This document shows positions 24,001-30,000 of a stretch of DNA of 64,000 nt, in pieces. How positions within the stretch are numbered: the stretch's first letter is position 1; the number at the start of each line of letters is the position of its first letter. The stretch lies in the NCBI RefSeq assembly GCF_056712565.1, contig NZ_CM160072.1, one strand, 5' to 3'. Made by a program: the position numbers.

Positions 24001-27000
24001 AGTAACAAACCAGCAAAACCTGCGCCAAAATGATCAATTGCTACACTGATACCGGCCGCCTTTAGCGATTTAACCGCTTCGGCAAACTCATCAAACCGAG
24101 ATATGACTTCACTTTCAGTAAATTCAACGATGATTTGTTCAGGTACCAGAGCATTGGCCTTTATTTCATCAAGTAAAAAAGAGACTGCGTCAGGTTTGTT
24201 AACCAGGGTCATAGGTAATAGATTGATTGAAATCATTTTATCACCGAGCTTAAGTGCGTGTGCCATCGCAAATGCAAGCGCCTTACTTTTGAGATCCGCT
24301 GTGTAGATTTCCTCGTCTTTACGCTGCCCAACCGCTATAGCTGACGGGCTGTCTTCATTTTTTTGCACAATGGCTTCAAAAGCGATTATCCGCCGCGATA
24401 AAGGGTCGACAATAGGATGAAAGGCAAAGTGGTCGTTTATATTTGATGAAAGGGTACAAGAATCAAGTTCTTTATCAGATCCGTCAGCGATAAAAAGCCA
24501 GGAGTCTTCAGCAGGAATCTCGAAATAGGTTGATTGTTCAGTTGCAAGGACAAAAGTACGAAAAAATTGTAGCGCTCTGTCATCATAAGTTAGCTGAAAT
24601 TTTGATGTGCCTTTGTCGAATACGGCCTGTAAAACGTCATCTCGCTCGTGCAGGCGTAAATCAAATAATTCCATTCCTGCTTTGCCAAAACGGCGAGCAG
24701 GCGCGTAATCGCACAACAGTTCAACAATATTATAGTGCCGTGGATCCTGGCATATGGCCCGATATATCATTTGAACCTGTTCTTCCGGACCTTCCAGAAG
24801 CTGGAAAAAATGAGAACCATTAAACAGTAAGATCCCTGTTACGTCAGACCGCATGTTCCTGCGATTTGCTATCGAAACCATTTCTTCAATTTTTTTGACA
24901 GGTTCGTCGCCACGTATATGGCTACGATAAATAAGGGTGGTAAGCATTAACAATCCAGGGTAATGGGCGAGGCGAGAGTAAGACGGTAACAGACATATCT
25001 TCTTGTGTCTTTCTTTTAATACCAAAACATAACCGTTTCTTTACATTGATAAAAAGTGGAAAAGGTTGAAGACGGTTTGGCGAAAAAACCTGTATAGGTT
25101 GTCATTTAAATGATGCAATATGTTTTATCGTAATGCATTGTTTTATATGAATTAGCACTAATTGCGAAAAATTAATTTATCATTCTGTACACATATTTCG
25201 TACAAGTTTGCTATTGTTACCTCACTTAACATTGATTAACATTTTTAACAGAGGCGTAGCATGCATCAAAATTCAGTGACTTCAGATTCTGCAGGAGCAA
25301 TCACTCGTTACTTTGCAAAAGCTAACTTGCCTACTCAGCAGGAAACTCTCGGAGAAATTGTGACTGAGATTTTGAAAGATGGACGTAATCTGAGTCGAAA
25401 GTCGCTTTGTGCCAAACTTCTTTGCCGGCTGGAACAAGCGACAGGGGAAGAGGAACAGAAACATTATAATGCACTAATTGGGTTGCTTTTTGAATAATGC
25501 AACAGCCTGATTATTTAACAGGTTAGCTATGAAGTCGTTATGAAGACATCTGATAATGAAAGTATAAAATATGAAATTACTGGCCAGGCGGTGCTCCAGA
25601 TACTGCGCATGAAGATAAATTTTTCGTTGCAGACTCTTATTAAGCAATTACTCGTAATGAAATCGGCTGAGGAAAATACTTTCCGACGAGATTTAATTGA
25701 CAGCATAATTCGTGATTTTAGCAACAGTGATACAGGAGGGCCAAACCGAAGAACAGCGATAGCTGACAATAAAAGTATGTTCACTGGTAAGAAAATAAAC
25801 AGAATACATTAAAATTTCATAAGTAAGATGAGAGGTTACCATGCTTGAAGATACTACTATTCATAATGCAATATCTGATAAAGCGTTATCAAGTTACTTT
25901 CGTAGTTCAGGTAATTTGTTAGAAGAAGAGTCTGCTGTGTTAGGGCAGGCTGTGACCAATTTAATGCTTTCAGGCGATAATGTTAATAATAAAAATATTA
26001 TCTTAAGTCTGATACACTCCCTGGAAACAACAAGTGATATTCTCAAAGCTGATGTGATTAGAAAAACACTGGAAATCGTGTTGCGATACACAGCTGATGA
26101 TATGTAACTTTTAATTATAAAGTATAAGTTTATAGAAAACTCATTCATCTTATTTTTGTCTGTCGCTTTAGACTATACACAGCATAATTTTATTGGATCA
26201 CTATTCCTGCGAGGCTGACATGAATAATTCAATCCCAGAGAGATTTATTTTTCAATGTGCTTTGTTTAAAAATCTCGAGAGGGAGGTGTTCATGACACAT
26301 GGATATGTTGATAGTCATATTATTGCTCAGGCTTTACGCTTGCGTTTAAAAGATGAGACCAGTGTTATTCTTTCTGATCTCTATCTGCAAATCTTGCAGT
26401 ACATTGAAATGCATAAGACTACACTAACGGATATCATTATTAATGACAGGGAATCTGTGCTCTCTTAAAACTTGAGTAAGGTTTTTGAATAAACATCAGC
26501 TGTATCACTATGCTGATGCAAAGTGAGCATTTCAGGCGTTATGCTTTCTTAATATATCCGCAATATCAGAGGGCAAACAGGAATGGAGAGCGCTCGTTTT
26601 CCATTCTTGACGCCTGATATCCCGCCTAATTTGTTTAATTCTGCCTACATTGTGCTAAAAAATTAATAGGCTAGATGAAGTTGGAGAAAATTTTATCTTC
26701 GGCGTGGATATTTGTGATGCTCTCTACCATGCTCTCTGTAGACCCCAGCGCGAGCGAATGAACGTCTCTTTAGCTTCTACAGACTTATCGATAAAGGCTT
26801 TGGGATTTTGATATTTATTCTGTTAATCGCCTGCGCCGCTGCCTTCCTGCTTGATAGGTATTTCAATAAAAGCGCAACGCCTGAAGAGATCCTGCGACGG
26901 GCTATAAATAATGGGGAGATCGTCCCTTTTTACCAACCTGTGGTAAATGGTCGGGAAGGGACATTGCGGGGAGTTGAGGTGTTAGCCCGCTGGAAACAAC

Positions 27001-30000
27001 CTCACGGTGGATATATATCACCCGCGGCATTTATTCCACTTGCTGAAAAATGCGGATTAATCGTTCCGCTTACGCAAAGCCTGATGAATCAGGTTGCCAG
27101 ACAGATGAACGCTATCGCGAGTAAACTGCCGGAAGGTTTTCATATTGGGATTAATTTTAGCGCCTCGCATATTATTTCGCCGACGTTTGTCGACGAGTGC
27201 TTAAATTACCGTGACAGTTTTACCCGCCGCGATTTAAACCTTGTTCTGGAAGTCACCGAGCGTGAGCCATTAAATGTTGATGAAAGTCTGGTTCAGCGGT
27301 TGAACATTCTGCATGAAAATGGTTTTGTCATCGCGCTGGATGATTTCGGTACTGGTTACTCAGGGCTTTCTTATCTGCATGACTTGCATATTGATTATAT
27401 CAAAATTGATCATAGTTTCGTTGGCCGCGTCAACGCAGACCCAGCATCAACCCGAATTCTGGATTGTGTATTGGATCTGGCGCGTAAACTTTCGATCAGT
27501 ATCGTCGCTGAAGATGTCGAAACGAAAGAACAATTTGACTATCTGAACCAAAATAATATCACATTTCAGCAGGGTTATTATTTCTATAAACCTGTTACAT
27601 ACATCGACCTGGTCAAGATTATCCTTTCTAAACCGAAGGTGAAGATTGTGGTTGAGTGAAAATTGATCAGCAAGGCCATGGTGCGGTGTAATTATAGACA
27701 GCTAATTAGCTCGTTGCCTCTTGTTACTATTGTTCATTCTTTTGTTTGCTATAATTGTGTGAAAGTTTTGACTGGATTGCCATTAGTAGCATGAACAATA
27801 GTAATAATCTGGATTATTTCACTCTCTATATCATCTTTTCCATTGCATTTATGCTGATCACTCTCCTGGTCATCCTTATTGCAAAACCCAGCACCGGGCT
27901 GGGAGAAGTGCTTGTGACGATAAATTTGCTTAATGCCCTGGTTTGGCTGGCGATCAATCTGGTTAATCGATTAAGGGAAAGACTCGTCAGCCACAGGGAT
28001 CAGCACTAATCTTTCAGTTTCTCACTGCCAGTATGCGGCTGAATGGGTTGCTGGCAGTGAACCCCTGGATCATTGAAGGAAAGGAATTATTGCACAAATA
28101 GTTGTCAACCCTGGTGTTATCACAGTTGTTTTATATATCAGTGAAATAATTTCCATGGCAACTGTTGATAATTTTGATGTCGAAGAGTTATTTGTTAAAC
28201 AAAATAGTTACCCCAAAGTGATCAATGTCATGAAAATAAGCTAAAAATGATAATGCTGGCTTATTTATCATTTAAATATTGTCGCTGTTTATCTATTTAA
28301 ATTTCTTGTGCTTTTGTTTTTATCTTTGCCTTCCGTTTTGGTAATCTGAACTCATAGGTTATTTGACCAGGAATGTTTGTTAATCCAATGAATGGATGGT
28401 TAATCTATGAAACTGAAAAAACTCCCCGGATTTAGTTTAGGACTTATTGCTCTGGCGGTGGGTAATGCATATGTAACGCAATTGTTGGATATTTATAGTA
28501 TAATTTCCTATATAACCGATGAAGAATCACCGATTGAAATCAAAAATAATACTTCTACAAGTAATGGGGAGTATCTAATCACTTAAGACGAAAGCCATGC
28601 TGTGAAAGTGGATGACGGTGTAACTGGATATATACATAATGCCAGTGTGATGACTAGTGGTGATGGATCTTATGGTATTTCTGTTGATAGCCAAAACAAA
28701 GTATTATATATAAGCGATAGCAATATTAAGACGCTCTGAAAGCGTATCTGACAAAGAAAATGGAGGGATAACAGCCAGCGCAGTAGTCAGTGAATTTGGT
28801 GGCACCATCGTTATGAATGGTGATAATTCAGTCGAGACGAGGGGGCATATTCAGCGGGACTTTTAAGTCAGATTAATGATTCTGGGACTGTGGAAAATAA
28901 CACCCGTCTTGAAACCACAGATAAAACGAACATTGTTACCTATGGGGAAAAATGCAGTAGGAGTTCTTGCATGTTCAAGTCCTGGAGAGTCTCGAACATG
29001 TGTCGATGCTGTAGATGATGAAGTTTGTGATTCTAACAGTTACGAAGTTATTAGCCGTGCTGATTTAAAAATGAATGGTGGTTCCATAACAACTAATGGT
29101 ATTAATAGCTATGGTGCTTATGCTAATGGGAAAAAAGCATATATTAATTTAGATTATGTGGTACTTGAAACTGTGGCTGATGGAAGTTATGCAGTTGCTA
29201 TTCGACAAGGTAACATTGATATAAAAAAGTTCTATTACAACAAATGGCACTAAAGCCCCCATTGCAAAAATATACAATGGTAGAGAGTTATTTTTTTCCA
29301 ATGTCACTTCAGAATCAACAGAAACGCCTACCCCCGTCCTGCGACCCGAAGCTGGCAGTTACGTCGCCAACCTGGCAGCCGCTAACACTCTTTTTGTTAT
29401 GCGTCTGAACGATCGTGCAGATGAAACGCGCTATATCGATCCTGTAACTGAACAGGAGCGTTCAAGCCGATTTTGGCTACGTCAAATTGGCGGGCATAAT
29501 GCCTGGCGTGACAGCAACGGACAGTTGAGAACGACCTCGGCACAGGCCATCTGGATGGGCGTCGATCATAATGTGCACACGGAAGCCAATGGCTCACGTA
29601 TTGAGAATGACGCAAATAACAATATCCAGACCCGACTTGGTTTCCACACCTTTATTCGTACTCAGGAGAAAAACAGCGGTCCGCACGGTGACGACTTTGA
29701 ACCTTTTGTTGAAATGAACGGGATCCATAACAGTAAAGATTTTGCTGTCTCAATAAACGGTGTGAAAGTTGAACAAGCCGGGGCGCGTAATCTGGGGGAA
29801 ATTAAACATGGCGTAAATGGCAATCTGAATCCTGCGGCCAGCGTCTGGGGTAATGTGGGCGTGCAGCTGGGTGATAATGGCTACAATGACAACGCAATGA
29901 TGGTGGGCCTGAAATATAAGTTCTGATCCCGCCATTAGCTAAAAAACCGCGTCGAATTCATCGACGCGGTAACATATGAAATATTATTTTTTGCCGATAG

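Follow-up and report, generated by a model that had tools for sequence, protein, structure and literature searches.

A pdeG locus reduced to its EAL domain: the ycgG2 allele of Escherichia coli phylogroup B2

PdeG belongs to the dozen or so E. coli c-di-GMP phosphodiesterases that balance motile against sessile or adhesive behaviour. In the window analysed here, a stretch of 64,000 nucleotides from contig NZ_CM160072.1 (assembly GCF_056712565.1), the place of pdeG between ymgC and ymgF is taken by a shorter open reading frame, which raises the question of whether the truncation inactivates the enzyme or rewires it. An earlier note on this DNA had offered both as outcomes of a deletion. Upstream lies ymgC (26220-26468, + strand), the last gene of the ycgZ-ymgA-ariR-ymgC operon, which adjoins the pdeG remnant, has 100% identity to the annotated CFT073 ymgC and is also annotated in NCTC11151, a genome identical to the window over 26100-27900. 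Downstream, in the position it holds in K-12, is ymgF (27791-28009, + strand), again with 100% identity to its CFT073 counterpart. The open reading frame between them occupies 26808-27659 on the + strand and runs from a TTG start to a TGA stop, encoding 283 amino acids. The gap to ymgC, which the note had put at about 340 bp, is 339 bp (ymgC end at 26468, TTG at 26808). The in-frame stop that it had placed upstream is a TAG at 26739-26741 (+ strand), which closes the frame ahead of the remnant; direct reading of the sequence finds 66 nt from this TAG to the TTG, with no ATG, GTG or TTG between.

The missing part of the gene was mapped by global pairwise alignment with cheap gap extension against two intact alleles (HB101 and AHB4). 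This places the loss of the N-terminal sensor region, as the note had proposed, at base resolution: 668 bp present in intact pdeG alleles are absent at the junction 26766/26767. The left flank follows AHB4 through ...GAACGTC and the right flank restarts at (C)TCTTTAGC, with a microhomology of one base (C). The alignment blocks show that 298 bp of the ymgC-pdeG intergenic region are kept (26469-26766, + strand), compared with about 331-335 bp in intact alleles, and that the deletion takes the final 37-38 bp ahead of the pdeG start codon, ribosome-binding region included, together with codons 1-210, which encode the first transmembrane segment (TM1) and the periplasmic CSS domain. Directly beyond the junction, 26767-26807 (+ strand) aligns in frame with pdeG codons 211-224 (LFSFYRLIDKGFGI), a segment that lacks a start codon and is probably not translated. 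The NCBI PGAP annotation of a pseudogene with a "missing N-terminus" begins at 26766. An insertion sequence (IS)-mediated deletion was considered and rejected, the junction carrying neither an IS remnant nor a scar. IS1 and IS2 insertions are found at the pdeG locus in other strains.

Two readings would deny that a deletion took place at all. In the first, sequence was collapsed or dropped during sequencing or assembly, and the shortness of the interval is an artefact. The window contains no N, and an 81-mer spanning the junction is intact in 919 of 5426 complete E. coli genomes, each independently finished, so that neither a gap nor a misassembly can account for it; the junction has moreover been described by PCR, cloning and sequencing (PMC6385356, PMC10459773). 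We reject this reading, whose probability we consider negligible, and with it the sequencing gap that the note had named as a refutation. In the second, the ancestor had the short gene, and the long form of K-12 arose later by gain of a TM1-CSS module. Here the 14 codons before the TTG (26767-26807) tell against it, being in-frame homologues of pdeG codons 211-224, as does an open reading frame that starts in the middle of a transmembrane segment. The full CSS-EAL architecture is, in addition, common to four E. coli paralogues (PMC5897775), and most genomes with the locus carry the long form, which leaves this order of events extremely improbable. Nor is K-12 pdeG equally short, an outcome that the note said would refute its reading: the K-12-type protein has 507 residues against 283.

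What the deletion leaves is a complete catalytic domain with a stub of membrane segment. A hydropathy scan places the TTG, codon 225 of pdeG, within the second transmembrane segment (TM2), a hydrophobic run from G221 to L239; the note, too, had placed it in a transmembrane segment. The start leaves out 4 of the 19 TM2 residues of the full protein and keeps 15 hydrophobic ones (M-IFILLIACAAAFLL; 26808-26852, + strand). The only ribosome-binding-like sequence that can be read ahead of it is a weak AAGG at a distance of about 10 nt. As the note had also held, the product is an EAL domain only: Pfam finds PF00563 alone (1.5e-65) at residues 27-262 of the open reading frame (26886-27593, + strand), a complete match to model positions 2-236 of 236 scoring 221.4 bits against a cut-off of 31.3, and no match to PF12792 in the 283 residues. 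In the 507-residue K-12-type protein, the CSS motif PF12792 is found at residues 31-217 together with the EAL domain. The CSS-domain phosphodiesterases (PdeB, PdeC, PdeD, PdeG and PdeN) carry this domain between TM1 and TM2; the window gene does not, and it descends from this class while having lost the class architecture.

The EAL signature residues (the E of EVLxR, N, E, DD, K, the E of EGVE, and Q) are all present. The signature motifs on the + strand are EVLAR (26976-26990), INFSA, whose N is the signature residue (27150-27164), LEVTE (27246-27260), DDFGTG (27339-27356), IKID (27399-27410) and QQGY (27567-27578). The sole deviation from the EAL motifs is the glycine of EGVE, where a GAT codon at 27513-27515 (+ strand) makes the substitution G460D and turns the conserved AEGVE into AEDVE, next to the catalytic glutamate of this motif. 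The best solved relative, the EAL domain of PA3825 (8e-66), has AEGVE at the aligned position. G460D is carried by the window, IHE3034, CFT073, 83972 and NCTC11151, and 311 genomes contain the exact 61-mer that surrounds it; it was not found in the ST131-type or AREA_R504 truncated alleles, nor in the intact alleles examined. For the CFT073 gene, c1610, every scored EAL residue has been reported at consensus (PMC3484386).

The gene thus described is the ycgG2 allele of pdeG (ycgG), which is already published and is ordinary for E. coli phylogroup B2. The window remnant and ycgG2 of IHE3034 (Zlatkov & Uhlin, Sci Rep 2019, PMC6385356) show 0 differences over 894 nt and share junction, TTG start and length of 283 residues. 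The open frame of 283 codons from the TTG matches the published description, and the 5′ deletion of the membrane and sensor region lies, as there, between ymgC and ymgF. According to Zlatkov and Uhlin, the first description belongs to Povolotsky & Hengge 2016 (PMC4686209). From c1610 of CFT073 (Spurbeck et al., mBio 2012, PMC3484386) the remnant differs by 3 nt and one amino acid (S348L), with locus, junction, TTG and length shared. The truncated YcgG termed B-11870-type (Cimdins-Ahne et al., Microorganisms 2023, PMC10459773) likewise has the same locus, junction, TTG and 283 residues; judged by the substitutions published for B-11870, the window has G460D in addition. Carriers of the junction include IHE3034, CFT073, 83972, the type strain ATCC 11775 and ST131 strains, and the exact 283-residue protein is present on at least 1000 contigs in public collections. 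The EAL part of full-length K-12 PdeG is orthologous, with the neighbours ymgC and ymgF shared. Over K-12 residues 225-507 the window protein differs at 7 positions (S306C, F358Y, E437A, G460D, L467F, Y474N and V504I), and it is without TM1, the CSS domain, 4 TM2 residues, the native start codon and the native ribosome-binding site.

Whether such an allele still functions is where the remaining alternative has to be weighed, namely that the remnant is a functionless pseudogene in which stop codons have not accumulated yet, the published phenotypes being polar or strain-specific. PGAP calls a pseudogene at the locus in every genome examined, the native start and ribosome-binding site are gone, and G460D falls within a conserved motif. 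Erosion also continues in some genomes. The truncated YcgG termed Tob1-type (PMC10459773), represented here by AREA_R504, shares its background and the loss of the CSS domain with the window, but a further 219 bp are gone that the window retains (26647-26865), taking with them the TTG and all of TM2; the number of Tob1-type genomes is obtained only by subtraction (985 minus 919), since a split match is counted as one place. The same variant tells in the other direction as well, having regained an in-frame ATG start through fusion to a 22-codon intergenic open reading frame, with a product of 285 residues.

Patterns of substitution bear on both sides in the same way. The dN/dS ratio is raised in deletion alleles, at 0.15-0.41 against 0.03-0.06 in intact alleles, a comparison that rests on few substitutions (Fisher p = 0.11 and 0.02), yet it stays well under 1. 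The EAL part has no frameshift or stop in 8/8 truncated genomes examined, and the two main truncated haplotypes are about 15 substitutions apart, so the open frame is a weak sign of constraint. Together, these sequence comparisons suggest that constraint on the truncated alleles is relaxed yet not absent, with small counts.

Experiments have been published on several of these alleles. A reconstituted translation system makes a 283-residue, 32-kDa product from the TTG, whose identity was confirmed by mass spectrometry, and in IHE3034, which carries the identical allele, YcgG2 gives an immunoblot signal that is gone in the deletion mutant (PMC6385356). In V. cholerae, YcgG2 acts as a phosphodiesterase, with an intermediate rugose-to-smooth shift indicating an activity below that of full-length YcgG, and the ycgG2 deletion mutant has altered S-fimbriae and citrate/iron phenotypes (PMC6385356). 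CFT073 without c1610 shows increased FimA and adherence, a phenotype that can be complemented with a heterologous phosphodiesterase (PMC3484386). The truncated B-11870 variant is made in larger amounts than full-length YcgG, and its production suppresses the rdar morphotype of biofilms (PMC10459773). Against these results, a functionless pseudogene is unlikely. The note had left it undecided whether the deletion "inactivates or rewires" the enzyme; the published product, reduced activity and phenotypes of the identical IHE3034 allele favour rewiring, and inactivation is not favoured.

We consider it very probable that the locus follows the scheme described for ycgG2: an old 668-bp deletion, a restart at the TTG and an EAL-only phosphodiesterase of reduced activity freed of its CSS sensor. 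The deletion would have been a single illegitimate event using 1 bp of microhomology. It would have taken away TM1 and the entire periplasmic CSS redox-sensor domain, along with the 37-38 bp upstream, native ATG and ribosome-binding site included. Translation would then restart at a TTG that was already there as leucine codon 225 within TM2, giving a protein of 283 residues in which a short linker joins the 15 leftover hydrophobic residues to the complete EAL domain. The TTG codon is also found in about 605 genomes that do not have the junction, so it need not postdate the deletion; K-12 has TTA at codon 225.

How this product might behave can be drawn from the paralogue PdeC, in which the CSS disulfide cuts activity and the TM2+EAL fragment has high activity and forms dimers via TM2, while the EAL domain without TM2 is inactive (PMC5897775). 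The fragment of PdeC processed by DegP/DegQ (Herbst et al., EMBO J 2018, PMC5897775) has the architecture of TM2 and cytoplasmic EAL that is predicted for YcgG2 and is, as YcgG2 would be, free of periplasmic redox control. The two differ in that the PdeC fragment arises by proteolysis and has a complete TM2, whereas ycgG2 is genetically fixed and keeps 15/19 TM2 residues, for which membrane insertion and dimerisation would be hypothetical. By this analogy, an enzyme without the CSS domain would escape both the DsbA/DsbB disulfide restraint and DegP/DegQ processing and may work as a sensor-independent, low-level phosphodiesterase whose output is set by expression alone. YcgG2 could then be regarded as a hard-wired equivalent of the TM2+EAL fragment that proteolysis releases from phosphodiesterases with a CSS domain. 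An elaboration that we put forward as a speculation of low probability combines two further propositions: that the TTG at codon 225 is a standing polymorphism serving non-K-12 lineages as an internal start on full-length pdeG mRNA for a short isoform with partial TM2 and EAL, which the B2 deletion fixed, and that the 15-residue TM2 stub tethers and dimerises the enzyme, which would then constitutively imitate the product of DegP/DegQ processing while G460D lowers its activity.

A consensus scan of 26050-27800 for promoters and terminators found no sigma-70-like or terminator-like site in the interval from ymgC to the TTG on the + strand; match counts across the scanned region did not exceed the shuffled expectation. 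A hairpin just past the ymgC stop is more stable than shuffled controls by a narrow margin (z = -1.96) and has no U-tail. Transcriptional read-through from the ymgC operon into the remnant is possible. Rfam, applied to the entire window, gives C0299 at 37629-37707 as its sole match and none near the pdeG remnant.

The allele is already known and common in phylogroup B2, and finding it here raises no new question; the additions to the literature are small, comprising the TTG in genomes without the junction, the distribution of G460D and the dN/dS comparison. For scans of genomes there is a lesson in a locus that RefSeq labels a pseudogene and that experiments show to have a working product. For the organism, the B2 lineage includes ST131 as well as uropathogenic and meningitis-associated strains, and its loss of the periplasmic redox sensor is plausibly pathoadaptive, a view that published work already takes.

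The window is collinear with the CFT073 chromosome segment 1,430,329-1,480,000 (99.45% identity), an E. coli chromosomal region, and its local gene order is bluF, ycgZ, ymgA, ariR, ymgC (26220-26468), an ORF of 283 aa that runs from a TTG at 26808 to 27659, and ymgF (27791-28009). An earlier note had taken this ORF to be pdeG (ycgG) reduced to its EAL domain, starting within a transmembrane segment about 340 bp from ymgC; the spacing is 339 bp. As the note also stated, an in-frame stop lies upstream (TAG, 26739-26741), and direct reading of the sequence between it and the TTG revealed no further start codon. 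While EAL is preceded in the 507-aa K-12-type PdeG by a CSS-motif domain (PF12792, residues 31-217), the only Pfam match in the 283-aa ORF is one complete EAL domain (PF00563, residues 27-262, 1.5e-65). Global alignment with the intact K-12-type allele of HB101 and with that of AHB4, the closest intact allele sampled, returned a single 668-bp gap, where the left flank is aligned through ...GAACGTC (26766) and the right flank picks up at (C)TCTTTAGC (26767), with 1 base ambiguous in placement. Lost with this deletion are 37-38 bp 5′ of the ATG and codons 1-210, and with them the N-terminal sensor region; no insertion-sequence remnant was seen at the junction in the alignment with intact alleles. 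Codons 211-224 (LFSFYRLIDKGFGI, 26767-26807) are retained in frame without a start codon, and this homology upstream of the start excludes the short gene as the ancestral form. The TTG is codon 225 and falls within TM2, formed by the hydrophobic segment G221-L239, so that the ORF opens with 15 hydrophobic residues (M-IFILLIACAAAFLL) rather than the full 19. A sequencing gap, the other explanation that the note had allowed for, is not found: the window contains no N bases, and the same junction in 919 genomes excludes an assembly artefact. Given the spacing, the stop, the TTG ORF, the lone EAL domain and the gap-free sequence, every element of that description is confirmed.

Of 5426 complete E. 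coli genomes, 919 contain an uninterrupted 81-mer spanning the junction (26766|26767), among them the type strain ATCC 11775, IHE3034, CFT073 and 83972. In ST131 strains (JJ1887, O25b:H4 and ZH063, for example), the junction is combined with a second EAL haplotype. Public contigs that encode exactly the 283-aa protein of the window number at least 1000. In AREA_R504 (L006), an additional 219 bp are gone (window 26647-26865), and this loss fuses the first 22 codons of an intergenic ORF with an ATG at 26583, in frame, to pdeG codon 245 (fusion point 2047|2048 in L006), creating an ATG-started product of 285 aa without any TM2. This variant matches the published "Tob1-type" YcgG (PMC10459773), and subtraction of search counts gives about 66 carriers. 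The source of its N-terminus is present in the window as a 27-codon ORF (MESARFPFLTPDIPPNLFNSAY..., 26583-26666, + strand). A second, hydrophobic ORF of 28 codons (MKLEKILSSAWIFVMLSTMLSVDPSASE, 26675-26761, + strand) ends 5 nt short of the junction, and its K-12-type counterpart has 26 codons and begins at another ATG. This ORF may be fortuitous, or it may encode a small peptide ahead of pdeG, either a leader or a membrane peptide. Insertion sequences have also reached this locus, independently of one another: IS1 between the remnant and ymgF in SF-173 (L010 1841-2538), IS2 within an otherwise full-length pdeG in ETEC4067 (L007 980-2208), where the CSS part is split from the EAL part, and IS2 in the searched interval of STEC379.

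Elsewhere in the window, autotransporter gene fragments of the ycgH region (28407-29926 and 31243-31586) are 99.2-99.8% identical to their CFT073 counterparts, which are annotated as pseudogenes, either frameshifted or incomplete. What is left of hemolysin E (hlyE; 37180-37507) lacks the N-terminus, as in CFT073, and is followed by the C0299 sRNA (37629-37707, 111.9 bits), the sole Rfam match in the window. Across 1-15700, 16383-19832 and 21746-21913, a lambdoid prophage tail module, with a gpJ (10109-13591) 97.4% identical to that of CFT073, adjoins sitABCD and 168 bp of icd, which match the corresponding piece of CFT073 at 94.6% identity; this is consistent with prophage integration at icd. 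Here sitA is intact (18918-19832, 304 aa), unlike that of CFT073, which carries a frameshift according to its annotation.

The truncated pdeG of the window is an allele already described, since it shares every nucleotide of its 894-nt remnant with the IHE3034 allele, published as ycgG2 (Zlatkov and Uhlin, PMC6385356), with the membrane/sensor part deleted, a TTG start and a product of 283 aa (32 kDa). The only serious rival to a rewired enzyme is a functionless pseudogene. The NCBI pipeline labels the locus a pseudogene ("missing N-terminus") in all named junction carriers, and weak translation signals point the same way. Against this, for the identical allele, the native TTG was about as good as ATG in reconstituted translation, the product was confirmed by mass spectrometry, and an immunoblot signal was present in IHE3034 and absent from the deletion mutant; YcgG2 was phosphodiesterase-active in a V. 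cholerae colony assay, if weaker than full-length YcgG, and its mutant had reduced S-fimbrial subunit and altered use of citrate and ferric citrate (PMC6385356). Deletion of the CFT073 copy, c1610 (3 nt different), raised FimA and adherence, and the mutant was complemented by a heterologous phosphodiesterase (Spurbeck et al., PMC3484386). Two truncated YcgG variants have been compared, with a CSS deletion stated to occur in all ST131 strains (Cimdins-Ahne et al., PMC10459773), and a 2023 review lists the truncation in B2, ST131, NMEC, UPEC and commensal strains and parallels it with proteolytic processing of CSS-domain enzymes (PMC10333796).

Sequence comparison also bears on the pseudogene reading. 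Relative to K-12 PdeG, the window allele carries S306C, F358Y, E437A, G460D, L467F, Y474N and V504I, of which G460D (27513-27515), beside a catalytic Glu, changes the conserved AEGVE, kept in the closest solved homologue, PA3825, to AEDVE. G460D is common to the window, IHE3034, CFT073, 83972 and NCTC11151 (exact 61-mer in 311 genomes); the ST131-type and AREA_R504 truncated alleles lack it, and it is not among the substitutions published for B-11870 (PMC10459773). We conjecture that the weaker activity of IHE3034 YcgG2 in the published assay may be partly due to it. Nei-Gojobori dN/dS over codons 245-507 rises from 0.03-0.06 for pairs of intact alleles to 0.09-0.19 for intact-truncated pairs and 0.15-0.41 for pairs of truncated alleles. 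The counts are small (N 1-7, S 2-7), and two Fisher tests made for illustration gave p = 0.11 and 0.02; the trend suggests, without being decisive, that constraint is relaxed but not abolished. Both observations favour a pseudogene; the published protein, activity and phenotypes support rewiring over inactivation, the two outcomes that the earlier note had offered.

The published account has the first remaining codon made TTG by point mutation (PMC6385356). Codon 225 is TTA in K-12 and already TTG in the intact alleles of AHB4 and ETEC4067, and a 41-mer centred on its G, which megablast has no way to seed across a mismatch at the central base, is present in 1524 genomes, exceeding the number with the junction by about 605. 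The TTG (26808-26810) is therefore a standing polymorphism that need not postdate the deletion. An internal ATG "at position 276", raised as possibly preserving the EAL domain (PMC6385356), corresponds to M93 (27084-27086); because the EVLAR signature (ORF residues 57-61, 26976-26990) lies upstream, a product begun there would be without it.

For a sequence identical to that of the window, the protein is made and c-di-GMP is hydrolysed (PMC6385356). In CSS-domain enzymes, as described for the paralogue PdeC, a periplasmic disulfide made by DsbA/DsbB lowers activity (PMC5897775). The B2 deletion would take away the part of PdeG that receives this control, and for that reason the truncated enzyme should be blind to the periplasmic redox state, with its output set by expression level alone.
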